DNA of 64,000 nucleotides from an uncultured Clostridia bacterium (lineage in GTDB: Bacteria > Bacillota > Clostridia > TANB77 > CAG-508): the NCBI GenBank assembly GCA_944386695.1, contig CALXCB010000002.1, forward strand, positions 12,322-76,321, given 5' to 3'. Shown piece by piece: positions 16,078 to 52,437 of the stretch. Both the position numbers and the translations under genes were made by a program. The notes beneath the pieces were generated by a model, which saw only the letters and a program-made list of their open reading frames with translations, made no database searches and was not told where the DNA came from. Position 1 is the first letter of the stretch. Every line of letters starts with the position of its first letter.

Positions 16078-17210
16078 TTAAGTTTTTACTCCTGCTCTCG
16101 AAATATTGAGCAATACTCCTATTTGACAGAGCATTATAAATAAGGCTGTACCACCATAACTAAAAAATGGCAATGGCATTCCTGTTGCTGGCATTGATGA
16201 TGTTACAACAGCAATATTTATTATTACTTGTATTGCTACAAGTGCTGTAATACCTGTTGCAACTAAACTACCAAACATGTCTGGTGCTTTTATTGCAATT
16301 AAGATTCCTCTCCAAATAAATATTGCAAATAATATAATAACAAAACAACAACCTATAAAGCCTAATTCTTCTGCTAAAACAGAAAATATAAAATCGTTTT
16401 GTGGTTCTGGTAAATATAAATATTTTTGCTTGCTTTGACCTAAACCTACTCCAAATAATCCTCCGTGATCCTATTGCATACAAACTTTGTATAACTTGCC
16501 ATCCTTCTCCTAACTCATCGCTCCATGGATTTAAAAATGTAGTTACCCTTGAAAGCCTATATGGTGCAATAACAACTAATCCTACTATTAAAGGGATTCC
16601 TGCAACTAAGCCGTGGTATTATTATTTGCCACAGTTTACAGCCTGCAATTATCATCATTATACCAACAATTCCTAACATTACCACAGAAGCACTCATATG
16701 TGGCTGCAATAGCAGTAATACAATTATTGGAATTATCCATAATAAATGTTTTAACCAACCTTTGATAAAATATTTTAGTTCTTCTCTATCTCTTGTTAAT
16801 ATACCTGCAAAAAATATAATCATACAAAATTTAACTAATTCTGATGGTTGAAAAGAAAATGTTTCTGTTAGGTATATCCATCTTTTTGCTCCATTTACTT
16901 CCCTTCCTATAACTAAAACTGCTGCCAGAAGTATAATCGCAACAATATATGCTATTTTATAAAATTTTTTATAAAATCTATAATCTATTTTAGATATGAT
17001 CCCCATTGCGAAAAGTCCTAATGCTGCAAAAATCGCTTGCCTTATAAAATATTTATAACTATTTCCACTTTCAGAAAGTGATGTTGGAGAGCTTGCAGAA
17101 AGTACCATAATCAAACCTAGAGTTAATAGTAATAATACAGTTATAAGTAAGGTATAATCTATTGGGTTATCTAAAAAACTTGAAAATTTCTTGCTTTTTT
17201 TCTTCACCAA
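16078..17210 (-). pseudogene. ftsW: FtsW/RodA (SEDS) cell-division protein, broken into three ORFs by two +1 frameshifts (~16611-16616 and ~16463-16467)
   Basis: The fragments 17210-16557, 16483-16268 and 16278-16078 together give a contiguous SEDS protein once a single C is removed before GGC (..IIP GLVAGIP..) and before GGA (..IGS GGLFG..). Confidence 0.8.
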
Positions 17211-17275: not shown

Positions 17276-18257
17276 TTAAATCATTAAAATTCCTAATATA
17301 CACATTAAAAGTGTTATAACCGAAAATACTCTAACTACTTTATTTTCATTCCAGCCAGAAAGTTCAAAATGATGGTGTAATGGTGCCATTTTAAAAATTC
17401 TATTTCCAGTTTTTTTATAATAATATACTTGAATTATTACAGATAATGTTTCAAGTATTGGTATTAATGCAATTATTACCAATAGCAATGGCATTTTTAA
17501 ATATAATGCAAAGCAAGAAATTAAGCCTCCTAAAAACAATGATCCTGTATCTCCCATCATTACTTTTGCAGGATGTAGGTTAAATATTAAAAAGCCTAAT
17601 ATTGCTCCGGATAGTAATACTTCCTAGTATTGATATCTCAATACTATTATTTATCATAGCTATTACTGTTAAACATGTTATTATTATTGCACAAACACTT
17701 GATGAGAGTCCATCAACACCATCTGTTAAATTTATCGCATTGGTTGTAGCTAGTATTACTAAAATTGTAAATGGTATGTATAGAAATACTGGAAGTGATA
17801 TGCTTGTTTTTACAATAGGTATAAAAATTTCTGTTCCATGATCTGTAAAAAACATTATAAATACTGTATATAAAATTGATATTAGTAATAAACCAAACAT
17901 TTTATAACTTGGTTTTAATCCTTTTGTATTTTCTAATATCAATTTTTTAAAATCATCGACAAATCCTACTATTCCAAATCCAATAGTTAAACATAGTATA
18001 GGTATTAGTTTTTGTGCACTTTCTATTTCTCCTTGCATTTTGAAATATATGTAACTTCCTATTGTACAAATTACAATAGCTAACATGAATATTATTCCAC
18101 CCATTGTAGGTGTTCCTTGTTTTTTTAAATGTGATCTTGGTCCATCTTCTCTTTCTATTTGACCTATTTTTATTTTCTTCAGTATTGGTATTATAATTAT
18201 TGCTAAAACCACTGTTACTGTAAAACTTATTAAAAGTATTGTTGTTTGAAAATTCAT
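17276..18257 (-). pseudogene. mraY: phospho-N-acetylmuramoyl-pentapeptide transferase MraY, split by a +1 frameshift at ~17605-17608 (ATCCGGA where ATC GGA is expected)
   Basis: A 225-aa N-terminal fragment plus a 94-aa C-terminal fragment ([17 protein letters not shown] motifs). Removing one C restores ..[26 protein letters not shown].. Confidence 0.85.
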
Positions 18258-21425: not shown

Positions 21426-21483
21426 GACAAATGGGACTGGTTCTTTTTTGTCCTTGTACAAAAAAGAACCAGTCCCATTTGTC
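21426..21483. terminator. long perfect hairpin (~26-bp stem GACAAATGGGACTGGTTCTTTTTTG / CAAAAAAGAACCAGTCCCATTTGTC), a putative terminator of spoVT
   Basis: Perfect inverted repeat with a 10-nt loop immediately downstream of the spoVT-like gene. Confidence 0.5.
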
Positions 21484-30088: not shown

Positions 30089-30112
30089 TTTTCAACTCTC
30101 CTTATATTCTTT

Positions 30113-30164
30113 TTTCTCATTGGGGACAGACCCTTTCGCAAAAGTGTCTGTCCCTTTTGCGAAA
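30113..30164. repeat. compound palindromic intergenic element, copy A (GGGACAGACCC / TTTCGCAAAAG arms), directly abutting the pyrK stop
   Basis: On the pyrK strand it reads TAA-TTTCGCAAAAG-GGACAGACAC-TTTTGCGAAA-GGGTCTGTCCCC-AATGAGAA. Same architecture as copies at 35291, 48284 and 51123. Confidence 0.7.
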
Positions 30165-30959
30165 TTAAAATTCAACATAAGTTGCATCAAATACTGGTCC
30201 TGCTTTACATACCCCAACATATTCTGGGTTCTCTGCTGGTGAACTTGCTATTTTTACAGAGCAACCTACACATACTCCCATTCCGCATCCCATTTTTTCT
30301 TCTAAAGATACTTGGCAAGGAATGTTTTTTTCTACCGCTAAGGCTTTTACAGCTCTTAACATTGGCAATGGACCACAAGCATAAATACTATCTATTTTTC
30401 CATTTTCAATATCTTCTTTTAAGAAATTAATGGCAAAACCATTTTTTCCATAACTTCCATCATCTGTTGCTAAACAAAGTTCATCTGATACTTGCTCAAA
30501 TTCTTTTTCTAATAACACAAAATCTTTATTTCTATAACCTAAATAGGTAGTTACATTTTTCCCATCTTTTTTTGCTTCTTTTGCAAGTTCATATAGTGGA
30601 AATACTCCTATTCCTCCCCCGATTATTGCTAAATTTTGATATTTAGAATAGTCAAATATACCAAATCCTAGAGGTCCTACTATATCAATATCATCTCCTA
30701 CTTGTTTTTGAGTAAGTAATTTAGTTCCTTTACCTTTTACTTGGAATATAAATTCTAGAATTCCTTTTTCTTTATCCATGTTGTATATACTAATTGGTCT
30801 TCTTAAAAATGGTTCAACTTGATCTGTTACTCTTATTTCTAAAAATTGACCTGGTTTGGCCTGGTCTGTGATTTCTTTTGCTGCTACACTAAATTTAAAA
30901 ATATCGTGTTTTAATTGGTTTACTTGTACTAATTTTGCTTGTATTTGCACTTTTGGCAT
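30165..30959 (-). CDS. pyrK: dihydroorotate dehydrogenase electron-transfer subunit
   Basis: 264 aa. FAD/NAD-binding ferredoxin-reductase fold. C-terminal 2Fe-2S Cys cluster CGMGVCVGC. Confidence 0.9.
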   Translation of the reverse strand: MPKVQIQAKLVQVNQLKHDIFKFSVAAKEITDQAKPGQFLEIRVTDQVEPFLRRPISIYNMDKEKGILEFIFQVKGKGTKLLTQKQVGDDIDIVGPLGFGIFDYSKYQNLAIIGGGIGVFPLYELAKEAKKDGKNVTTYLGYRNKDFVLLEKEFEQVSDELCLATDDGSYGKNGFAINFLKEDIENGKIDSIYACGPLPMLRAVKALAVEKNIPCQVSLEEKMGCGMGVCVGCSVKIASSPAENPEYVGVCKAGPVFDATYVEF

Positions 30960-31916: not shown

Positions 31917-32102
31917 CTTTCCAACTTCCTCTCTTTTTATTTTTCGACGTTATTGTATCATAAAATAATATAATATGCAATGAACAAAAAATTTAATTTT
32001 TTCAATATAAATTAAGAGAGTAACCTATAAATGAACTGTTACTTTAAATGTGAACAGGTCATATAGGAACCCTCTTAAAAATAGATTTGTTCAATTTTTA
32101 CT

Positions 32103-32381
32103 TTAACTCACTTCTTTTATTATGTCTAATTTAGTTTGAGTTTCTATGTCCATAACTAATTCTTTTGATTTTGCTAATTTTATTAAATAATCTAATTTAG
32201 CTTGATTAGCCTTTATATTATATGAATAATAATCAATTAACTCGTCTTCTGCAAATTCAAAATTTTTATGAGCTTGTTTCAAATTTTCCCTTGTTTTTAA
32301 AATGCTTTGAATTAATTCATTATTTTTTTCTTCTTCATTTTTCTCTGTAATACTAGTCTCTTTATAATATTCTTCTTCCAT
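32103..32381 (-). CDS. hypothetical protein, possibly DUF2508/YaaL-like
   Basis: 92-aa charged helical ORF. Weak resemblance only. Confidence 0.4.
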   Translation of the reverse strand: MEEEYYKETSITEKNEEEKNNELIQSILKTRENLKQAHKNFEFAEDELIDYYSYNIKANQAKLDYLIKLAKSKELVMDIETQTKLDIIKEVS

Positions 32382-32483
32382 GAATTCACCTACCTTTTTA
32401 CTACTAATATATTCAAATTTAGTAATTTTATTCCGTCATGGTTATTATTTACAGTTATTTCAGAATTATAACTCTTTTGTTCC

Positions 32484-32888
32484 AATTCATAACTCAGAGA
32501 AGGAGGACTGGATGAAAACTTCAGCCAACCCGTTAGATTGAAATGAAATATAGAATTTCTTAATATAGAAAATGAGGAATGTTCACGCACGAAAATTATA
32601 TATTTATATTTTTTTAGAAATTTCTCGGTTCAATACGTGCTTTAGCCATTCTAAATATAAAATAAACGAGCCTCTCGCTACATACTTCGCGCTTCCTCAT
32701 TTACTTTATATTAAGAATGGCTACAAGCACTTCAATCACATTCATAATTTCTAAAAAAATATAAATATATAATTTCACGAAGCTGAGTGAAAGAGGCGCA
32801 TTTTCTATATTTAGAAATTCTTATTGAATGTAATGATAAGGGTTGGCTGAAGTTTTCATCCAGTCCTCCTTCTCTGAGTTATGAATTG
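32484..32888. repeat. ~405-bp imperfect palindrome with perfect 43-bp termini (ATAACTCAGAGAAGGAGGACTGGATGAAAACTTCAGCCAACCC and its reverse complement) and nested internal inverted repeats. Centre of symmetry ~32685
   Basis: Left arm 32489-32531 is the exact reverse complement of right arm 32840-32882. Inner blocks (e.g. AGAAATTTCT...AAAAAAATATAAATATATAATT) also pair with some divergence. No credible ORF inside. Confidence 0.7.
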
Positions 32889-32908
32889 TAACACTTTTTT
32901 GACATTTT

Positions 32909-32943
32909 TTGTTTTTTATCTTATTAAATGCTTGATATATCTA
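32909..32943 (+). promoter_or_regulatory. putative serS promoter (-35 TTGACA, 17-nt spacer, -10 TATTAA)
   Basis: Consensus -35 box with a reasonable -10 box about 50 nt upstream of the serS RBS. No T-box element detected. Confidence 0.35.
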
Positions 32944-32992
32944 GATAAATACTATATAATAACAAATATTAAAAGAAAGGACGGGTATAATT

Positions 32993-34276
32993 ATGATAGA
33001 TATAAAATTTTTAAGAGAACATCCAGATATTGTAAAAGAAAATATCAAGAAAAAATTTCAAGATCAAAAATTGATATTGGTTGATGAAGTACTTGATTTA
33101 GATAAAAAATATCGTGAGTCTAAATTAAATGGTGACAATTTACGTAGTGAAAGAAAATCTTTAAGTAATCAAATTGGTAATTTAATGAAATCTGGAGAAA
33201 AACTTCAAGCTGAAGAAATAAAGCAAAAAGTTCAAGAACTTAATGAAAGATTAGAGAAAAATGAAGTTTTAGAAGATGAACTTGCTGAAGAAATTAATTC
33301 TAGAATGATGAAAATTCCAAATATTATCCATGAATCTGTTCCAATTGGAGAAGACGATAGTAAAAATGTGGAAATACAAAAATTTGGAGATCCTGTTGTC
33401 CCTGATTATGAAATTCCTTATCATGGAGAAATTATGGAATCTTTGGGTGGATTAGATCTAGATAGTGCACGCCGTGTTTCAGGTCAAGGTTTTTATTATT
33501 TGATTGGAGATATTGCAAGACTTCATTCTGCAGTTCTTACATATGCAAGAGATTTTATGATTAATAAAGGATTTACTTATTGCATTCCTCCTTATATGAT
33601 TCGTTCAAATGTTGTAACTGGTGTTATGAGTTTTGAAGAGATGGATGCTATGATGTACAAAATTGAAGGTGAAGATCTATATTTAATTGGTACTTCTGAA
33701 CATTCTATGATTGGTAAATTTAAAGATCAAATTTTAGATAAATCTAAAATGCCTTATACTATGACTTCTTACTCTCCTTGTTTTAGAAAAGAAAAAGGTG
33801 CTCATGGTATAGAAGAACGTGGTGTTTACCGTATACATCAATTTGAAAAACAAGAAATGATCGTTGTTTGTGAGCCTGAGGATAGCTGGAATTGGTATGA
33901 TAAAATGTGGTCATATACTGTTGAATTTTTTAGAAGTATGAATATTCCTGTTAGAACTCTTGAATGTTGTAGTGGAGATTTAGCAGATCTTAAAGCAAAG
34001 TCTTGTGATGTTGAGGCTTGGTCTCCTCGTCAAAAGAAATACTTTGAAGTTGGAAGTTGCTCTAACTTAACAGATGCTCAAGCTCGTAGACTTGGTATTA
34101 GAATTAAAGGTGAAAAAGAAAATTATTTTGCACATACTTTAAATAATACTGTTGTTGCTCCACCAAGAATGCTTATAGCTATTATGGAAAACAACTATCA
34201 ACCTGATGGAAGTGTTATTATTCCAGAAGTTCTTAGACCTTATATGGGCGGTTTAGGCAAAATTTGTAAAAAATAA
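32993..34276 (+). CDS. serS: serine--tRNA ligase
   Basis: 427 aa. N-terminal coiled-coil arm. Class II motifs (FRKE, GAHGIEERGVYRIHQFEK). Confidence 0.95.
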   Translation: MIDIKFLREHPDIVKENIKKKFQDQKLILVDEVLDLDKKYRESKLNGDNLRSERKSLSNQIGNLMKSGEKLQAEEIKQKVQELNERLEKNEVLEDELAEEINSRMMKIPNIIHESVPIGEDDSKNVEIQKFGDPVVPDYEIPYHGEIMESLGGLDLDSARRVSGQGFYYLIGDIARLHSAVLTYARDFMINKGFTYCIPPYMIRSNVVTGVMSFEEMDAMMYKIEGEDLYLIGTSEHSMIGKFKDQILDKSKMPYTMTSYSPCFRKEKGAHGIEERGVYRIHQFEKQEMIVVCEPEDSWNWYDKMWSYTVEFFRSMNIPVRTLECCSGDLADLKAKSCDVEAWSPRQKKYFEVGSCSNLTDAQARRLGIRIKGEKENYFAHTLNNTVVAPPRMLIAIMENNYQPDGSVIIPEVLRPYMGGLGKICKK

Positions 34277-34708: not shown

Positions 34709-35290
34709 ATGATAGTTAAAAACCCACAATTTGAAATATCGGCAGTTAGCCCTAATCAATATCCGAAAAATGATTTACCAGAAATTGTTTTAGTTGGAAA
34801 ATCAAATGTTGGAAAATCAAGTTTTATAAATACAATGATAAATAGAAAACGTTTAGCTCGTACAAGTTCAGAGCCTGGTAAAACTAGACAAATTAATTTT
34901 TATAATATTGATGAAAAATTTTATTTTGTAGACCTTCCTGGATACGGCTATAGTAAAATGTCTAAGACAGAACAAGCAAAAGTTGGTAATTTTATAGAAG
35001 AATATTTATTTCATAGAGACAAAATTTCTCTAATTATATTTTTAATAGATATAAGGCATTCTCCAACAGCTAATGATAAACTTATGTACAATTATATTAT
35101 CAGTTCTAAAAGACCTTTTATCATTTTAGCTAACAAGGCTGATAAAATTGCACCTACTAAAGTAGCAGGCACAACAAAATCTTTACAAAAAGAAATAAAT
35201 CCTTTAATGGATTCTATAATGCTTCCATTTTCTTCTGAAAAGAAAATTTATTCAGATGATGTATGGGATATTATAGAAAAATACATTTAA
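34709..35290 (+). CDS. engB: ribosome-biogenesis GTP-binding protein YihA/YsxC (EngB)
   Basis: G1 GKSNVGKSS, G3 DLPGYG, G4 NKADK. Start taken at the ATG after GAAAGGA (the ORF track uses an upstream TTG). Confidence 0.9.
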   Translation: MIVKNPQFEISAVSPNQYPKNDLPEIVLVGKSNVGKSSFINTMINRKRLARTSSEPGKTRQINFYNIDEKFYFVDLPGYGYSKMSKTEQAKVGNFIEEYLFHRDKISLIIFLIDIRHSPTANDKLMYNYIISSKRPFIILANKADKIAPTKVAGTTKSLQKEINPLMDSIMLPFSSEKKIYSDDVWDIIEKYI

Positions 35291-35380
35291 TTTCGCAAAA
35301 GGGACAGACCCTTTTGCGAAAGGGTCTGTCCTCAATGAGAAAAATTTTTCAAAAGGGTCTGTCCCCAATGAGAAATTTTT
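35291..35380. repeat. compound palindromic element, copy B, abutting the engB stop and overlapping the last 10 codons and stop of uvrB
   Basis: TAA-TTTCGCAAAAG-GGACAGACCC-TTTTGCGAAA-GGGTCTGTCC-TCAATGAGAAAAATTTTTCAAAAG-GGTCTGTCCCC-AATGAGAAATTTTT. Confidence 0.7.
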
Positions 35381-39865: not shown

Positions 39866-42800
39866 CTAAATTTTAATTTCTTTTCCCAGAAAAGTAGAAT
39901 AAATATATACTTTATCTACTTTTCTATTTAATCCATTCTCTAATGCTTCTTTATATAGCATCAATTGTGCTTTATGCCTTTCAACTAAAATTTGTTCTCC
40001 ACTGGCACCGAATGGACCGGTTCTTTTTGACACCGAGGAACCAAAAAGAACCGGTCCATTTGGTGCATTTGGTGCCAAAAAATCTGTTTTATAATCTAGA
40101 AGTATTAATTCATCATTTTTGTTTATATAATATAAATCTATAATTCCTTGCACTAATATATTTTCATCTTCAGTTGTTTCCATTACATCTTTAGCGGGTA
40201 TATTAATATAAAAAGGCTCTTCTTTATGATATTCTTTTGCTTCTTTTAATTCTTGCCATATATTAGATTGTGTGAATTTTAATATAACATATGGATTAAT
40301 TGCCTCTAGCCCTTTTTGTGTTATCATTTCTCTGGCTTTTAAATCTTCTATAAGATTTTTTATATCTTGCAAATTATAGTCTTTTCCAAATTCTAAATTT
40401 TTCATACATAAATGTACTAGTGTTCCTCTCTGAGCTGGTGTTATTTTTTCTTCTTCTGTTCCAACTAAAAATTTTGGTTTTGGAAACTCTAACATTTCTA
40501 TCTCTTTTTCTTTCTTATCCTCGTCATTATCCACATTATCCGTTTTTTTGTTTTCATTATTTAATTCTTCTATTTCTTCTAAATCGTCTCTTTCACTAAT
40601 TGTTTCTGTTTCATCTTCCAATTTTAGCGAGTACTTTATTTCTTTAATATTTTTATGAACGATATTTGTTACAGATTCTTTTGTTGGTATTTTTATCAAA
40701 TCTTTGTATGGATATTCAAATACCAATTGATTTTTTAATTTTATAATTTCTTCTTCTTTTATATTTTTAGAATTTTCTTCTAATAGTTTGAATATATCTA
40801 TATCTTGTTTTTCCTCTTCTTTTATACCTTTTAATATGTCTTGTCCTTTTAAAACATTTATTTCCATAATGTTTTTTGATTGTTCTGGATTATATAAAAA
40901 TGTGAGTAAAATCCAATCTATATATTTTTTGTATTTTTTTAATAAATTTGAATTTATTTTTCCATTTTCTAGTTTGTATATGTCCACTAATTCCTTCATT
41001 TTTTCTTTTTCTTTATTAGAATCTTTTTTTATACCTGTGATATAAATTTTCTCTTTTGCCCTAGTTAAAGCAACATACAATATACGCATTTCTTCTGCTA
41101 AATTTTCTTCTAGTAACTTTTCTCTTAATGCTAATTTAGTAATTGTATCATATTTTATTTGCTTGTCATAATCGATATATTTCACGCCTATTCCAAGATC
41201 TTGATGTAATAAAATATCATTATTTAAGTCTTGCATATTGAAATTAGAACCTGTGCCTACTAAAAATACAATTGGAAATTCTAGTCCTTTGCTTTTGTGA
41301 ATACTCATTATTCTTACTACATTTTCATTTTCTCCTATTAGTTTTGCAGCTCCTAAATCTCCACTTCCTAATTTTATTTTTTCTATGAAATTAATAAAGT
41401 TGAATAATCCCTTAAATGTCGCACTTTCATATTGCTTTGCTCTTTCAAAAAGCATTTTTAGGTTTGCTACTCTTAAGTTTCCATTTGGCATTAGAGCTAC
41501 ATAATTTAAAAATCCCGTTTTTTCATATATTGTCCAAATTAGTTCGTCCAAATCTAGAATTTGATTTTTTTGGCGAAAATCTTCTAATTTTTCTAAGAAA
41601 TTTTCTATTTTTTCTTTTAATTCTTCTCTTACAGAAAGTTTAGATTTTAACATAGCTGTGTAAAAATCATCTTGATCATCACATAATCTTATTTCTAGTA
41701 AGTCATCATTTGTAAACATACCTATACTTGATAACATAATATGAACTAGCGGTATATCTTGGTATGGATTATCTATAATCTTTAATAAGTCCATAATTAT
41801 TTGTATTTCATAAGATTCTAGATATTCTGATGAGGTATCTGAATATACATCGATATTTTGCAAAGTAAGTTCTTTTTCAAAAATATTTGCTTTATTTTTA
41901 GTTGAACGAAGTAATATTACTATATCTTTACATTCAATTTTACGAAATTTTTCTTTTTTGTTATCATAAACTTGAAAACTACTATCTAACAAGTCACGTA
42001 TTTTTTTTGCTACAAATTTAGCTTCTAGTTCTATATCTTCTAATTTTTCCTGTTCTTCTTGATCTTCTTCTAAGCTATCATTTTGAATGTTACTTTGTAT
42101 CTCACTTTCCTCTAACTTCTCTTCATCCTCTAGTGGGTCTAATATATCTATTTCTGAAATCAAGTTTTCTTTACTTTCTGGATATGCTGCACCTAAATTC
42201 AAATATTCTTCTTCTGTATATTCTATCTCTCCTAGTTCTTTTCCCATTATACTTTCAAAGATCATATTTGTAATTTCAAGTACATTTTCTCTACTTCTAA
42301 AATTTTTAAAAAGTTTGATTTTTAAGCCTTTTTCATTTGCTGTGTTTTCACTATAATTTTGATATTTATTTAAAAATAAATCTGGCATTGCTTGTCTAAA
42401 TTTATAAATACTTTGCTTGACATCTCCTACCATAAAAATATTATTTCCTTTTGATATTGATGTTAATATATATTCTTGTACTAAGTTACTATCTTGATAT
42501 TCATCTATTGCTATTTCTGCAAATTTTTCTTGATATTTTTTTGCAATATCAGAACTTTCTATTTTTTCATCATTTTCTTTTATTAGTATTTCAAGTGCTA
42601 AATGTTCAATGTCACTAAAATCTACTATGTTTTTTTCTTTTTTGCTTTTTTTGAATTTTTCATCAAAATCAAGGATTATTCTTTTTAATTTTACTAATAT
42701 TTCATACATTTCCTGTAAATCTATATTTGCTTGCTCTGAATTTGATATGAAGATTTTATCTCTTTTATCAGTAAAATTCTTTTTTACTTTGTCTCTTATT

Positions 42801-43705: not shown

Positions 43706-44638
43706 TTAAATCCTCTCTATTTCCTCTATTGATAATCCTGTAATTTCTGATATTTTTTTTATTTCAAAGCCCTCTTCTAAAAGCTTTTTAGCAATTTTTC
43801 TTTTTTCATTTTTTTCTCCTTGCTTTAGTCCTTCCTCTTTTCCTTGTTTCAATCCCTCTTCTTTTCCTTGTTTCAATCCCTCTTCTTTTCCTTGTTTTAA
43901 TCCTTCTTCTTTTCCTTGTCTTAGTCCTTCTTCAGTTCCTTTAGCTTTTGCTGTTTCTAATGCTGAGTGCTCTTCTAGTTCTGACATTAATCTTATTTCT
44001 GCTAGTCTTTTTATTTCTTTATCTCCTGTTAAAACTTCGTAATCATCTAATGCTTCTTTTATTTCTTTATTTTCTTTTTTAGCCATTTCTAGTAAATCCC
44101 CCCTTTCCATATCTACAAATGCTAACCATTGATTTGCACTTTCTTTCATATTTGGTTTTTCTTTTCTAAATTTTTCTAATTCTATATAATAATATTTTAC
44201 TAAATTATTTATTTCATATTCCTTATGTTTCTTTGCTACTCTTACTGTCTCTGTTATATATTCTGGTAATCCTGTTAATGTATAGTTTAATATTGCTATT
44301 ACTATTACTTTTTTTAATTCTTCGTACCTTCCTTTTGGTTCTAATTGTTCTACAATTTTTTTACTGGCATAAAATGTAGTTCTTTCTTCTATATTTTTAT
44401 TATCTCTTAACTGCATTTCGATGTTGACAATTTCTCCATCTTCCAATTCAACCTCTAAATCCAATATTCCATATTTCATTTCTTTTGTTAATTGCTCTAA
44501 ACGAGCATCATGCATAACTTTTTTGATTTTTATATTTTCTTCTAAAATTGCACTTAAAAAGCTTTTTAAATATTTTTCGTTTCTACTGAAAAAAGCTTTA
44601 AATACAATATCATTTTTCATTGTTAATTTTTCTGTCAT
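43706..44638 (-). CDS. Rpn/YhgA-like PD-(D/E)XK nuclease-family putative transposase with a C-terminal DUF4351-like tail and a (KEEGLKQG)x5 tandem repeat
   Basis: N-terminus NDIVFKAFF...LDLEVELEDGEIVNIEMQ...TFYASK matches the Rpn recombination-promoting nuclease family. C-terminus IAKKLLEEGFEIKKISEITGLSIEEIERI is typical of it. Start set at MTEKLTMK with RBS GGAGG. Confidence 0.75.
   Translation of the reverse strand: MTEKLTMKNDIVFKAFFSRNEKYLKSFLSAILEENIKIKKVMHDARLEQLTKEMKYGILDLEVELEDGEIVNIEMQLRDNKNIEERTTFYASKKIVEQLEPKGRYEELKKVIVIAILNYTLTGLPEYITETVRVAKKHKEYEINNLVKYYYIELEKFRKEKPNMKESANQWLAFVDMERGDLLEMAKKENKEIKEALDDYEVLTGDKEIKRLAEIRLMSELEEHSALETAKAKGTEEGLRQGKEEGLKQGKEEGLKQGKEEGLKQGKEEGLKQGEKNEKRKIAKKLLEEGFEIKKISEITGLSIEEIERI
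43818..43937. repeat. 24-bp tandem repeat x5 (CCTCTTCTTTTCCTTGTTTCAATC) inside the Rpn-like gene, encoding EEGLKQGK repeats
   Basis: Direct inspection shows near-identical consecutive 24-mers. Confidence 0.8.
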
Positions 44639-45162
44639 TAATATACCTCCTATTATAATTTGTTTTTTCTTATTTAGCAATATTTTTCAAAAAAATAATA
44701 CATAATAAATAGAATATTGGGCATCACTTCCTTTCTACAAGATTTTATTTGCTTTGACTCAAAACTTTTAATTTAGAAATAAAAAATTAAATTTTTGTAA
44801 TTAATTCAAATAGATTTAAAATCAATAAAAAATTAATTTGCATTTATAATAATAACATAAATAGAAAAAAATTACAATTGATTTTGCAATTTTTTCTATA
44901 AAACCCTATATTTCAACTATTATATCTACTCCTTTAAAATAAATTTTTGAGTAGTTTTGTTCTTTTAATTCTGCTGGTATTTCTTCTGTTTTCCCTTGAT
45001 AAATTATGTTACCATTTTGTTTTATTATTATATTTAATAATCTTAATTCTTTTATTTTCATATTTAATCTTATTCCCTTCAAAAAAAATATATTTTATTG
45101 GTATATTATAATACTTATTTTGATTTGTTTCAAGATATTTATTTGCTTTATTTTTGCCCATT

Positions 45163-48259: not shown

Positions 48260-48283
48260 ACTTGCTCCTTTACATAATATTTT

Positions 48284-48355
48284 TCATTAGGGTCGTTTCT
48301 TTTTGCAAAAGGAAACGACCCTTTTGCAAAAAGAAACGACCCCAATGAGAAAAAA
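48284..48355. repeat. compound palindromic element, copy C (GGAAACGACCC-type arms), between the hpt stop and the uvrC start
   Basis: CATTAG-GGTCGTTTC-TTTTTGCAAAAG-GAAACGACCC-TTTTGCAAAAA-GAAACGACCCC-AATGAGAAAAAATTA. Confidence 0.7.
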
Positions 48356-49042: not shown

Positions 49043-49087
49043 ATACTATAAGAAATTGGAAGTAAAAAAATTTTAAGAAAGGAGTTT

Positions 49088-49235
49088 TTTAGCGCCAGGA
49101 CATATGTATCTATGTTGACGAGGTCTAAGGTTATCGAAAGATTCGGCGGATGCCTTAGTGGTACGTACTTTACCATAGACTTAATCAAAAAATAATGGTG
49201 ACATTATAACAAATGTTAAGTCAAAGTAATACTTT
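49088..49235 (+). ncRNA. glmS ribozyme: glmS ribozyme (GlcN6P-responsive self-cleaving riboswitch) in the glmS 5' leader
   Basis: Conserved core segments AGCGCCAGGAC, GACGAGG, UUAUCGAA, UUCGGCGGAUGCC in the correct order upstream of glmS. Confidence 0.8.
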
Positions 49236-49271: not shown

Positions 49272-51122
49272 ATGTGCGGAATTGTTGGATATATAGGATC
49301 TCAAAAAGCTAGTCCTATACTTTTAGCTGGACTTTCAAAATTAGAATACAGAGGTTATGACTCTGCAGGAATTGCAACTATCGAAGGGAATGTCTTAAAA
49401 GTTGTTAAAAATAAAGGTCGTGTTGAAAGTCTTTATAATTTAGATGATACAAAAAAATTAGAAGGATCTATTGGTATTGCTCACACTAGATGGGCAACTC
49501 ACGGAATACCTTCAAAAATAAATTCTCATCCTCATTTAGATAATTCAAACTCTTTTGCTGTTGTTCATAATGGAATTATTGAGAATTATATTGAAATTAG
49601 AAAATTTTTAGAAAAAGAAGGTTATCATTTTATATCTGATACAGATACGGAAATTATACCTAACTTAATTAGTTACTTTTATAATAAAGATACTAAAAAT
49701 GATGATTTAAAAATTTTAAGAGCTGTAAAAAATACTTGTGATAAATTAATCGGAAGCTTTTCTTTAGAAATATTATCTTTATATATGCCTGATAATATGA
49801 TTGTTGTAAGAAAAGATAGCCCTTTGGTTATAGGTAAAGGAAATGGTGAAAGCTATATTGCTTCTGATATACCTGCTATTTTAAGTTATACTAAAGATTT
49901 TTATTTATTAGAAAATTTTGAATATGCTCTTTTGTCTAGAGATTCAATTAAGTTTTATGATAATGATTTAAAAGAATTCGAAAAGAAATCTACTACAATC
50001 ACTTGGGATGCTATGGCTGCTGATAAATCTGGCTTTGAAGATTATATGCTAAAAGAAATTATGGAGCAACCTACTGCTGTTAGAGAAACAATCGGTTCAA
50101 GATTAGATGATATTTATTGTAATTTTGATGAACTTTCTTTTACTAAAGAGTATTTAAGTTCTTTGAAACAAATTTATATAATTGCTTGCGGTACAGCTAT
50201 GCATGCAAGTTTAGGTGTAAAAGATACAATTGAACATTTATGTAAAATTCACACTGAAATTGCTGTGGCTTCTGAATTTAGATATCGCAACCCTCTTATA
50301 GATGAAACAACTTTATGTATTTTTGTTAGTCAATCAGGTGAAACAGCTGATACTTTAGCTGCATTAAAACTTTCAAAAGAACATAAAGCAAAAACTATAT
50401 CTATAACAAATGTTATTGGTAGTTCTATTGCAAGAGAATCTGATTTTGCACTTTATACTCATGCTGGTCCTGAAATTGCTGTAGCTTCTACTAAAGCATA
50501 TACTTCTCAAATAACTTTACTTACTTTACTTGCTATGTATTTTGCTGAAATTTTAGAAACTACTTCTACTGAGGAATTAGAAAAACTAAAATTAGATTTA
50601 CTTGCTTTACCAAATAAAGTTGAAACATCTTTAAAATTAACATCTCAAGCTAAAAACATTGCTAAAAATATATTTAAAGAAAAAGATGTATTTTATCTTG
50701 GTAGAGGCATAGATTATGCTACAGCCTTAGAAGCTTCTTTAAAATTAAAAGAAATTTCTTATATTCATTCTGAAGCTTATTCTGCTGGTGAATTAAAACA
50801 CGGAACCATTGCATTAATTGAAAAAGGCATTAATGTAATTGGCATAATGACAGATGAAAATTTATTAAAGAAAACTGTAAGTAATATAGAAGAACTTATA
50901 ACTAGAGGCGCTGTAACCACTGTTGTAGTTTCAGAAACAACTTCTAAACAGATTGACCATTCAATCTTTGATAATGTAATTGTTGTTCCTGATACAAATA
51001 TTTATTTATCACCCATTGTTACAGTTGTTCCTTTACAACTTCTTGCTTATTATGTATCTAAAGAAAAAGGATTGGATGTTGATAAGCCTAGAAATCTTGC
51101 TAAGTCTGTCACAGTTGAATAA
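49272..51122 (+). CDS. glmS: glutamine--fructose-6-phosphate aminotransferase (isomerising)
   Basis: 616 aa. N-terminal MCGIVGY Ntn-amidotransferase. Two SIS domains. C-terminus ends with ...KSVTVE. Confidence 0.95.
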   Translation: MCGIVGYIGSQKASPILLAGLSKLEYRGYDSAGIATIEGNVLKVVKNKGRVESLYNLDDTKKLEGSIGIAHTRWATHGIPSKINSHPHLDNSNSFAVVHNGIIENYIEIRKFLEKEGYHFISDTDTEIIPNLISYFYNKDTKNDDLKILRAVKNTCDKLIGSFSLEILSLYMPDNMIVVRKDSPLVIGKGNGESYIASDIPAILSYTKDFYLLENFEYALLSRDSIKFYDNDLKEFEKKSTTITWDAMAADKSGFEDYMLKEIMEQPTAVRETIGSRLDDIYCNFDELSFTKEYLSSLKQIYIIACGTAMHASLGVKDTIEHLCKIHTEIAVASEFRYRNPLIDETTLCIFVSQSGETADTLAALKLSKEHKAKTISITNVIGSSIARESDFALYTHAGPEIAVASTKAYTSQITLLTLLAMYFAEILETTSTEELEKLKLDLLALPNKVETSLKLTSQAKNIAKNIFKEKDVFYLGRGIDYATALEASLKLKEISYIHSEAYSAGELKHGTIALIEKGINVIGIMTDENLLKKTVSNIEELITRGAVTTVVVSETTSKQIDHSIFDNVIVVPDTNIYLSPIVTVVPLQLLAYYVSKEKGLDVDKPRNLAKSVTVE

Positions 51123-51195
51123 TTTTTCAAAAGGGTCGTTTCCTTTCGCGAAAGGAAACGACCCTTTTGCAAAAAGAAACGACCCCAATGAAAAA
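51123..51195. repeat. compound palindromic element, copy D, between the convergent glmS stop and the PLP-enzyme gene stop
   Basis: TAA-TTTTTCAAAAG-GGTCGTTTCC-TTTCGCGAAA-GGAAACGACCC-TTTTGCAAAAA-GAAACGACCCC-AATGAAAAATC. Confidence 0.7.
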
Positions 51196-52437
51196 TCATA
51201 ACATTGAAATTGCTTTTAATACACCGATTTTTCCATATTCATATGTTAATCCTCCCTGCATATATGCAATATATGGTTCTCTTAATGGTGCATCACAACT
51301 TAATTCTATTGTTGCACCTTCTACAAATGTTCCCGCTGCCATAATAACCTCATCAGTATAACCAGCCATTGGACTTGGAACTGGAGTTACAAAACTATCT
51401 ATTGGTGAACCTGATTGTATTCCTTGACAAAATTTAATTAATTTTTCTTTGTCGTTAAATATAATATTTTGCACTATATCTGCTCTTGGCTCATTATATT
51501 TGGGATTTGTATTATAGCCCAATCTTTCTAACATTCTACTTGCAAATATCATTGTTTTTAAAGAACTTGCTACTACTGATGGTGCAAAAAATAGTCCTTT
51601 TAAGTAATTTGTATTTTGTCCTAATGATGGTCCTATTTCTTTTCCTAAACCTGTTAATCTTTCAGCTACAAGCTCTATTAAATCTTTGTTTCCTACTATA
51701 TATGCTCCACTTGTTGCGATTCCTGCTCCTAAATTTTTTATTAATGAACCTACCGCTATATCTGCTCCGACTTCTATTGGCTCTTTTTCTGCAACAAATT
51801 CACAATAACAATTATCTACCATTATAATTACTTCTTTATTTACTTTTCTTATTTCTCTTATAATTTCTTCAACTTGATCTATTCTTAAGCTTTTTCTTGT
51901 TGAATATCCTATAGACCTTTGAATTTCCACTAATTTTATGTCTTTTTTTGACAATCTATCTACAATTTTTTCTGTATCAAATTCATTATTTTTTAAATCT
52001 ATTTGTTCATATTTTATATTATATGATTTTAATGAACTTGGGCTAGGATTTTCTCCTATTCCTATTACGGTTTGTAATGTATCATATGGAAGTCCTGTTA
52101 TACTTAGCATAATATCATTTGGTCTCAATAAACCTTGAAGTGTAATTGCTAAAGCATGTGATCCTGATATTAATTGACTTCTAACTATGGCATCTTCTGC
52201 CTTAAATATTTCACTATATATTTCTTCTATTTTATCTCTTCCTGCTTCGTCTATTCCATATCCTGTTGAAGTATTTAAATGCATTCCTGATAAATGATTA
52301 TTTTGCATGGCTTGTAATACTTTTAGACTATTTATTTCACATATTTTTTCTATTTTTGCAAATTGTGGTTTTATTTCTTCTTCCACTTCTATTGATAATT
52401 TTTCTATTCCATCACTTATTCCAAAATTTTTATACAT
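51196..52437 (-). CDS. aluminium-resistance-family protein (YnbB-like PLP-dependent Cys/Met-metabolism enzyme fold)
   Basis: ~413 aa. Resembles the PF06838 / methionine-gamma-lyase-like family. Start set at MYKNFGI, which is 15 nt after GGAGGG. Confidence 0.7.
   Translation of the reverse strand: MYKNFGISDGIEKLSIEVEEEIKPQFAKIEKICEINSLKVLQAMQNNHLSGMHLNTSTGYGIDEAGRDKIEEIYSEIFKAEDAIVRSQLISGSHALAITLQGLLRPNDIMLSITGLPYDTLQTVIGIGENPSPSSLKSYNIKYEQIDLKNNEFDTEKIVDRLSKKDIKLVEIQRSIGYSTRKSLRIDQVEEIIREIRKVNKEVIIMVDNCYCEFVAEKEPIEVGADIAVGSLIKNLGAGIATSGAYIVGNKDLIELVAERLTGLGKEIGPSLGQNTNYLKGLFFAPSVVASSLKTMIFASRMLERLGYNTNPKYNEPRADIVQNIIFNDKEKLIKFCQGIQSGSPIDSFVTPVPSPMAGYTDEVIMAAGTFVEGATIELSCDAPLREPYIAYMQGGLTYEYGKIGVLKAISML

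Follow-up and report, generated by a model that had tools for sequence, protein, structure and literature searches.

An invertible, lineage-specific foldback insertion between a DUF2508 gene and serS in an uncultured gut Clostridia bacterium

Known invertible and palindromic elements

In a 64,000-nucleotide stretch of DNA from an uncultured Clostridia bacterium (contig CALXCB010000002.1; hereafter the window), a long quasi-palindrome has been identified in the intergenic region between a DUF2508 gene and serS. The element is a lineage-specific, invertible foldback insertion, and the nearest described kinds are the invertons and the quasi-palindromes that are shaped by template switching. "Foldback element" was one of several labels offered by a first-pass annotation made from the sequence alone, and it is the best fit among them; the natural inversion polymorphism of the interior was absent from that annotation, as were the lack of the element in a close sister lineage and the poor conservation of its mini-ORF.

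Invertons, represented by fimS of Escherichia coli, the Salmonella hin switch, the cwpV and flgB switches of Clostridioides difficile and the gut invertons detected with PhaseFinder, are short intergenic segments bounded by inverted repeats and found in both orientations in nature. The repeats of the classic invertible switches are roughly 9-26 bp long. The element described here has the structure and the population pattern of an inverton, but differs in the following features: (i) its repeats are longer, 49-54 bp; (ii) the invertible segment is itself a nested quasi-palindrome; (iii) no invertase gene is present among the scanned open reading frames (ORFs) within 64 kb; (iv) no convincing orientation-specific promoter was found in it; (v) it is a recent insertion, missing from close relatives.

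Foldback elements and palindromic miniature inverted-repeat transposable elements (MITEs), such as ERIC/IRU and Correia, are small non-coding insertions with long terminal inverted repeats, which form one hairpin and vary in presence between lineages. In contrast to these, the element is apparently single-copy, and neither a family of related copies, nor a target-site duplication, nor a cognate transposase was found; it has neither the copy number nor the target duplication of a MITE.

Long palindromes are regarded as difficult for bacterial chromosomes to maintain, and most of what is known about them was learned from engineered E. coli constructs. The hairpin nuclease SbcCD of E. coli cleaves a 246-bp interrupted palindrome and not an 85-bp one (PMC3315005, PMC4245961). 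Like the engineered palindromes, the element is chromosomal and above the size at which SbcCD is active in E. coli; unlike them, it is natural, persists across many samples and has its symmetry broken by a 25-nt centre and four mismatch blocks.

Template switching between the arms of an inverted repeat, described for quasi-palindromes of E. coli and yeast, jointly yields arm homogenisation, arm expansion and spacer inversion (PMC8604942, PMC13100816, PMC8794818). The same inversion of the spacer, homogenisation of the arms and apparent arm extension, known also with the hairpin-loop inversions in plastid non-coding DNA, are found at the locus described here. The template-switching quasi-palindromes described so far measure tens of bases, whereas the element spans 416 bp with 49-bp perfect arms and a 308-bp spacer, and both of its orientations are frequent within a bacterial population. 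The same picture, spacer inversion included, results from homologous recombination with gene conversion, which keeps the arms nearly identical in the large palindromes of mammalian sex chromosomes (PMC3723533); in comparison with these, the element is about 1000 times smaller, bacterial and non-coding.

Organisation of the quasi-palindrome

The element is located in the 611-nt region between two divergent genes: the DUF2508 (YaaL-family) gene, encoding 92 residues on the minus strand (32103-32381), and serS on the plus strand (32993-34276). A repeat search of the window placed the quasi-palindrome at 32478-32893, 416 nt in total. The long imperfect palindrome of the first-pass annotation is thus real, and the perfect 43-bp termini given there fall within a perfect core of 49 nt. 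The component parts, in window positions, are as follows.

32478-32531: left terminal inverted repeat, 54 nt, perfect over 32483-32531, holding an inward AAGGAGG (32500-32506) and an ATG at 32512
32840-32893: right terminal inverted repeat, 54 nt, the reverse complement of the left arm with a single mismatch (32482/32889), perfect over 32840-32888; position 32849 covaries with 32522 in most contigs
32532-32839: interior, 308 nt, itself quasi-palindromic, with four asymmetric blocks
about 32532-32551, 32576-32592, 32623-32636 and 32671-32695: asymmetric interior blocks, each with a counterpart on the opposite arm
32552-32589 and 32784-32821: further inverted pair, 38 nt, 79% complementary
32593-32622 and 32746-32775: inner perfect inverted repeat, 30 nt
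32643-32670 and 32696-32723: innermost inverted repeat, 28 nt, 89% complementary
32671-32695: non-palindromic centre, 25 nt, relatively G+C-rich
32483-32888: segment seen in both orientations (contig comparison)
32491-32888: 398 nt missing from the empty site of the sister lineage, where the empty allele has 17 nt, CGCCAAAATAGGGATCA

Alignment of one arm with the reverse complement of the other gave 86% identity, distributed unevenly: perfect blocks are interleaved with four wholly non-matching blocks and the 25-nt centre. The RNA fold prediction, a check proposed in the first-pass annotation, folds the entire span into one hairpin on either strand, with a free energy of -196 kcal/mol (z = -21.7) for the plus strand and -205 kcal/mol (z = -22.5) for the minus strand; 0 of 100 shuffled sequences reached equal stability. 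The corresponding values for the DNA hairpin are -127 kcal/mol and z = -23.

Orientation in natural populations

Contigs of the same locus (designated by L numbers) were retrieved from metagenome assemblies through exact protein match (identical DUF2508 protein). Besides the window, 20 independent contigs carry the element, each from a different sample and together from at least three assembly projects. In this set the segment 32483-32888 is oriented as in the window in 12 cases and inverted in nine:

forward (12): window, L002, L003, L005, L006, L008, L009, L010, L011, L013/L097, L098, L103
inverted (9): L001 (the same contig as L004 and L106), L007, L012, L094, L102, L109, L110, L113, L114

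The inverted contigs correspond to an exact in silico inversion of 32483-32888 with 0-3 single-nucleotide polymorphisms (SNPs). In L001 and L007 this segment is exactly reverse-complemented relative to the window, with three SNPs each, and the flanks are collinear. The arm mismatch 32482/32889 stays in place in the inverted contigs, which locates the exchange within the perfect 49 nt. An inner-only flip, between the perfect 30-nt repeats, was observed in none of the 12 contigs covering more than one block.

Identical backgrounds carry both orientations. The complete 611-nt haplotype of the inverted contig L001 is shared by the forward contigs L008 and L009, and partial contigs of either orientation (L102, L113 and L114 inverted; L013, L098 and L103 forward) are identical to the window wherever they cover it. 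The presence of the same haplotypes in both orientations implies at least two flips without an accompanying SNP, and consequently flipping that is much faster than mutation over about 600 nt. Judging from the assembled contigs, the segment is invertible and both orientations occur in nature. The flanking haplotypes were also considered as a test of single versus recurrent inversion; they are blurred by recombination between strains, and the matter was settled by the identical intergenic haplotypes instead.

Contig ends and assembly

An assembly chimera had been named in the first-pass annotation as an alternative explanation of the palindrome. Eight independent assemblies, in addition to the window, cover all 611 nt of the intergenic region with 0-5 SNPs. 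Contig orientation would become arbitrary if the inverted repeat exceeded k; the perfect repeat of 49 nt is shorter than the final k that can be inferred for the assemblers (55, 77 and 87), and in simulated de Bruijn assembly the path through a pure genome, forward or inverted, has no branch at any of these values. An artefact, either as a chimeric palindrome or as orientations produced by arbitrary traversal of the assembly graph, is in consequence extremely improbable, even though every dataset is a short-read assembly, inverted repeats exceeding k do leave orientation arbitrary, and many contigs terminate within the element. Contigs with the inverted junction come, moreover, from nine different samples.

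Six contigs end within one base of the position lying k bases past the start of the perfect repeat, with an implied k of 55, 77 or 87:

left end at 32537 (32482 + 55): L114
left end at 32559 (32482 + 77): L113
left end at 32569 (32482 + 87): L110, in which "k87_" in the name states k
right end at 32834 (32889 - 55): L103
right end at 32812 (32889 - 77): L098
right end at 32813 (32889 - 77, off by one base): L102

In the simulation, this position is the vertex at which the k-mer containing repeat plus interior gains a second predecessor. Under that model the k-spaced ends reflect either co-occurrence of the opposite orientation in the sample or an additional copy of the element. The MEGAHIT contig L011, also assembled at k87, crosses the vertex where L110 stops, which argues against a constant second copy, and a mixture of both orientations within single samples is suggested. 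Deeper contig ends inside the element (32584, 32615, 32616, 32697, 32715 and 32754) are probably coverage drop-outs in the hairpin.

Empty site in related lineages

A protein search revealed a DUF2508 homologue with 92% identity (P0002), found on contigs L115, L116, L117 and L119 from four samples. In this sister lineage the spacer between the DUF2508 gene and serS is 229 nt long; identity to the window in the flanking sequence is 91% toward DUF2508 and 95.5-97% toward serS. The counterpart of the 416 nt is a stretch of 35 nt, TGTTACCATTCAT-CGCCAAAATAGGGATCA-TAACA. Homology between the window and the empty site extends to 32490 on the left and restarts at 32889 on the right, so that 398 nt (32491-32888) are new and replace 17 nt. 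At this site, conserved in other respects, the element is present in some lineages and absent from others.

In more distant relatives the spacer measures 128-194 nt, and the element was not found in it; its absence from these as well as from the sister lineage identifies it as an insertion. No target-site duplication was detected, as no direct repeat flanks the element in comparison with the empty site. The symmetric TA dinucleotides at the element are uninformative, since they lie inside the palindrome.

A separate contig, L118 (positions 1-273, corresponding to about window 32465 onward, toward serS), carries the sister DUF2508 allele followed by unrelated A+T-rich DNA. Its divergence begins about 13 nt before the palindrome site, which hints at another structural variant in this position or at a chimera in the contig.

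Evolution of the arms

Positions 32522 and 32849, which pair in the hairpin, are C/G in the window, L005 and L010, and A/T in L001, L002, L006, L008 and L009. One contig, L007, is mismatched at this pair and represents an intermediate. The arms evolve in concert and are homogenised.

The left outer arm bases TGTTCCAATTCAT (TGTTACAATTCAT in other strains) are homologous to TGTTACCATTCAT of the empty site. On the right, the mirror sequence ATGAATTG replaces the GGGATCA of the empty allele and mirrors the ancestral left-side CAATTCAT. The repeat may have been extended outward by a few bases into the flanking chromosome through templated correction.

Across the eight full-length contigs, variation is concentrated in the arms, with four segregating sites in their 108 nt and one in the 308 nt of the interior, in contigs that had been selected by an identical DUF2508 protein. 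Owing to this selection, low diversity of the element is uninterpretable as a sign of constraint, and that use of it was abandoned.

Copy number and mobile-element features

Within the window, the 39-nt arm core and the inner 30-mer occur only at their two places each, with up to three mismatches allowed and 0 matches expected by chance. An exact scan with a 22-mer of the repeat found no match in any of 185,579 species genomes, nor in JGI metagenomes or viral contigs. The blastn searches with the element returned no match among phages, a single 41-base match at chance level (E = 9e-3) among plasmids and, against 80 syntenic loci of relatives, one weak 66-nt match far from serS and nothing else. 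A repeat-spanning ORF of 66 residues, searched against 5.8 billion predicted proteins, recovered only the same locus, in the inverted form. A multi-copy element would give partial ORFs at contig ends from other loci, and the protein search returned none. The element is apparently single-copy. The first-pass annotation had suggested, as one of several readings, two head-to-head copies of a MITE-like element of about 200 bp and had proposed a search for single arms; neither a single-arm copy nor any other was found in the window, species genomes, JGI metagenomes, viral contigs, phages, plasmids or proteins.

The 40 ORFs of the window that were scanned against Pfam encode no tyrosine or serine recombinase (Phage_integrase and Resolvase domains). 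Of the 46 ORFs with 150 residues or more, six fall outside this set, four of them recognisable housekeeping genes. An AddA-type helicase-nuclease is encoded in the window according to the same scan. The sole mobile-element-like gene found there is an ORF of the PD-(D/E)XK nuclease transposase family (PF12784, Rpn/YhgA-like recombination-promoting nucleases) at 43706-44680 on the minus strand.

Coding, promoter and RNA features

Each arm contains AAGGAGG followed by ATG (32500-32506 and 32512-32514 in the left arm), pointing inward. The signals predicted from the element are the following.

32512-32541, plus strand: mini-ORF MKTSANPLD after a motif resembling a ribosome-binding site; not conserved, 32522 C>A giving MKT-stop
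32821-32859, minus strand: mirror mini-ORF MKTSANPYHYIQ, cut short by the paired 32849 G>T
32538-32566, plus strand: promoter-like TTGAAA-17-TAATAT, a consensus match present in one arm only and directed inward
32655-32679, minus strand (plus strand in the inverted form): weak terminator-like hairpin, a 6-bp stem followed by TATTTTATAT, a consensus match only

The ribosome-binding-site-like motif and ATG noted in the termini by the first-pass annotation are present; the mini-ORF behind them is not conserved: in both arms its fourth codon becomes a stop in the common variant that has 32522 C>A together with 32849 G>T. With only 9 and 12 codons, three in the common variants, and no conserved ORF, the mini-ORFs were rejected as coding sequences.

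The serS gene has its own promoter downstream of the element, as previously annotated: a near-consensus, strong TTGATA-17-TATAAT at 32932-32960, set 39 nt away from the element and shared by relatives in which the element is missing. Within the element, the TTGAAA-17-TAATAT site would face serS in the window orientation and the DUF2508 gene in the inverted one. Promoter-like sites in the region number seven, against 5.5 +/- 2.3 in shuffled sequences, and promoter and terminator scans of both orientations gave nothing above chance.

The Rfam search of the whole window at the gathering score identified a glmS ribozyme and a tRNA elsewhere and nothing at the element. At the locus itself, with E up to 10, only generic long-hairpin microRNA models were returned, far under their thresholds. 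No T-box matched at either setting, in agreement with the first-pass annotation, whereas its suggestion of a structured small RNA found no direct support. A PyrR leader was considered in view of ACUCAGAGAAGGAG in the repeat, which resembles the PyrR-binding motif, and of the pyr genes nearby; it was rejected, as the PyrR model is unmatched and the pyr linkage is lineage-specific.

The leaders of serS vary among the relatives. In L057 (2520-2690), a T-box leader, AAGGTGGCACCGCGA, with a terminator, read from the sequence, is followed by an 82-nt palindrome just before serS. In the window species, and likewise in L014 and L015, serS is preceded by no T-box, just a 32-nt leader, and the regulation of serS thus differs within the clade. 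A further relative, L027 (1151-1261), has a hairpin with a 34-nt stem upstream of the serS promoter.

Mechanism of inversion and alternative explanations

The account favoured here, with moderate confidence, is that of a single-copy, non-coding foldback insertion of about 400 bp which flips through recombination, or through replication template switching, between its own repeats. Exchange between the 49-54-bp terminal repeats, whether by homologous recombination or by a template switch from one arm to the other, would flip the 308-bp interior and make both orientations common, and it would also keep the arms identical, with paired positions changing together. The repeat probably grew by a few bases outward into the flanking chromosomal DNA in the same way, and a dedicated invertase would not be needed. 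The element lies upstream of the promoters of both neighbours, and the conserved serS promoter lies outside it; the effect of a flip on serS is hence probably small or nil.

Several points weigh against this account. The evidence on orientation consists of short-read contigs and not of reads. Only the outermost repeat is seen to be used, and homology-driven exchange should sometimes flip the segment between the inner 30-nt repeats; a fixed exchange site would be expected of a site-specific recombinase. The 12:9 ratio of orientations and the hint of mixtures in the contig ends look like programmed phase variation. The alternation of perfect and asymmetric blocks, together with the near-invariant interior, could reflect functional constraint. 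The right-side ATGAATTG has a possible alternative origin in an insertion at ATTCAT microhomology. No source sequence for the 398 nt was found in any collection searched, and the recombinase search covers 40 ORFs, and the within-genome copy search the sequence, of the 64-kb window.

The main rival is a programmed inverton, a phase-variation switch whose 49-54-bp repeats would be the substrate of an unlinked site-specific recombinase and whose asymmetric promoter and terminator-like hairpin would be flipped by it. Such a switch would produce extra transcription toward serS in one orientation and toward DUF2508-pyrF-pyrK-pyrD in the other. Frequent occurrence of both orientations on identical haplotypes, contig ends indicative of within-sample mixtures, exclusive use of the outer repeat with inner flips unseen, one-sided promoter- and terminator-like sites that swap strands on inversion, and a position between divergent genes, as in many invertons, all agree with it, and Clostridia-like gut genomes have a median of three invertons each (PMC11892184). 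We nevertheless regard it as rather unlikely, though the most serious of the alternatives: the 40 scanned ORFs contain no recombinase, the promoter-like matches are at the level of shuffled sequences and the terminator is weak, serS has a strong conserved promoter of its own outside the element, the repeats are far longer than typical recombinase sites, and a palindromic interior is atypical of invertons. Absence from close relatives does not suit a conserved regulatory device, and the concerted change of the arms and their apparent extension point to homology-driven processes. A variant of the idea, in which a self-sufficient, nested quasi-palindromic inverton flips at high frequency with no linked invertase, by host recombination or cruciform processing, and redirects the one-sided promoter/terminator pair between the essential serS and DUF2508-pyrF-pyrK-pyrD, is doubtful.

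A MITE or foldback transposon with further family members, mobilised by a transposase from another locus and inverting as a side effect of its long terminal repeats, would account for a small non-coding insertion with terminal inverted repeats that is present in some lineages and missing from close relatives. A second genomic copy would, in the simulation, also produce contig ends exactly k into the repeat, and the PD-(D/E)XK transposase-family ORF is present in the window. This origin is nonetheless still less probable, in view of the lack of a further copy in the window, in the 22-mer scan of species genomes, metagenomes and viral contigs, and among phages and plasmids (the chance-level 41-base match aside), the return of the same locus only from the protein search, the k87 MEGAHIT contig that continues through the position at which an additional copy would have ended it, and a target in which 17 nt were replaced with no duplication. 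A function at the RNA level, with a transcript folded into a hairpin of about 200 bp of stem that would give rise to a small RNA, be cut by RNase III or form the leader of serS or of DUF2508-pyr, is very unlikely. The predicted fold is extremely stable on both strands, promoter-like sites face inward, and the 32522/32849 pair has undergone one compensatory change; that change is, however, equally explained by arm-to-arm conversion of the DNA, and the variants, about 99% identical, hold too little variation for covariation. The absence of an Rfam family even at E up to 10, the conserved serS promoter downstream of the element and the existence of close relatives without it speak against such a role, and a fold that is the same in both orientations gives the DNA no reason to flip.

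As a natural 416-bp quasi-palindrome that persists across many gut samples, with an empty-site allele and both orientations on identical backgrounds, the element offers a natural system for the tolerance of palindromes, the upkeep of arm identity and the rate of flipping without a dedicated enzyme. It also provides a caution for inverton surveys, since the occurrence of both orientations does not by itself make a repeat-flanked segment a regulatory switch. If flipping does alter the expression of serS or of the pyrimidine genes, the element would be an unusual invertase-independent switch beside an essential gene.

Host lineage and neighbouring genes

The G+C content of the window is about 28%. 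The relatives of its serS all come from metagenome-assembled, uncultured gut Clostridia (Clostridium sp. CAG:452 and CAG:273 and Candidatus Merdicola types, from rabbit, ruminant, chicken and human hosts), and the best match has 92% amino-acid identity. A replication origin or terminus was ruled out, as the GC skew is negative uniformly over the window.

In all relatives examined, the empty-site lineage included, radA follows the DUF2508 gene. The start of radA in the window lies at about 9663, and the two genes are separated by a block of 22.4 kb (9664-32102) with clpX, clpP, tig, murG, a spoVT-like gene, scpA, pnp, rpsO, pyrD, pyrK and pyrF. This block is a lineage-specific rearrangement, one breakpoint of which coincides with the stop codon of DUF2508, at a distance of about 375 nt from the palindrome. 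Two genes of the window are split: an ftsW/rodA-like gene (16268-17210) into ORFs of 71 and 217 residues, and an mraY-like gene (17276-18257) into ORFs of 94 and 225 residues. Their Pfam profiles are only half covered, and the splits are frameshifts, owing either to pseudogenes or to errors of the assembly consensus.

A block of about 2.4 kb (31917-34276), comprising the DUF2508 gene, the element and serS, shows 0-0.9% segregating sites across contigs L001-L009; the regions flanking it show 5-8% and mosaic haplotypes. The low diversity of the block, as read from the aligned contigs, is consistent with a recent spread between strains by recombination, confounded by the choice of contigs.

Other hairpin repeats

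Short palindromes resembling repetitive extragenic palindromes (REPs) are located in other intergenic regions of the window (21426-21483, 30092-30242, 35252-35368 and 40005-40066). They carry the motifs GGGAC(A/T)G..., GGACCGG and TTTTGCAAAAGG, and are translated as spurious ORFs such as "GTDPFAKGSVP". They form a family of small hairpin repeats in the genome of the window and in its relatives, unrelated in sequence to the 416-nt element.

Two further REP-like palindromes, 48279-48352 and 51123-51196, form an inverted pair of 52 nt with 87% identity, 2.8 kb apart, which brackets the glmS ribozyme (49080-49232) and the glmS gene (49272-51122). By its arrangement, the bracketed region could be another segment able to invert.

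In the relative L049, in which serS begins at 1145, the region 921-1140 contains a perfect 44-nt inverted repeat composed of two REP-like GGGGACG hairpins. The repeats carry the ribosome-binding sites of both divergent genes and flank 132 nt with what is apparently the only strong promoter (TTGCTA...TGTAGTATAAT), aimed at serS. This segment is a candidate promoter inverton next to an essential gene.

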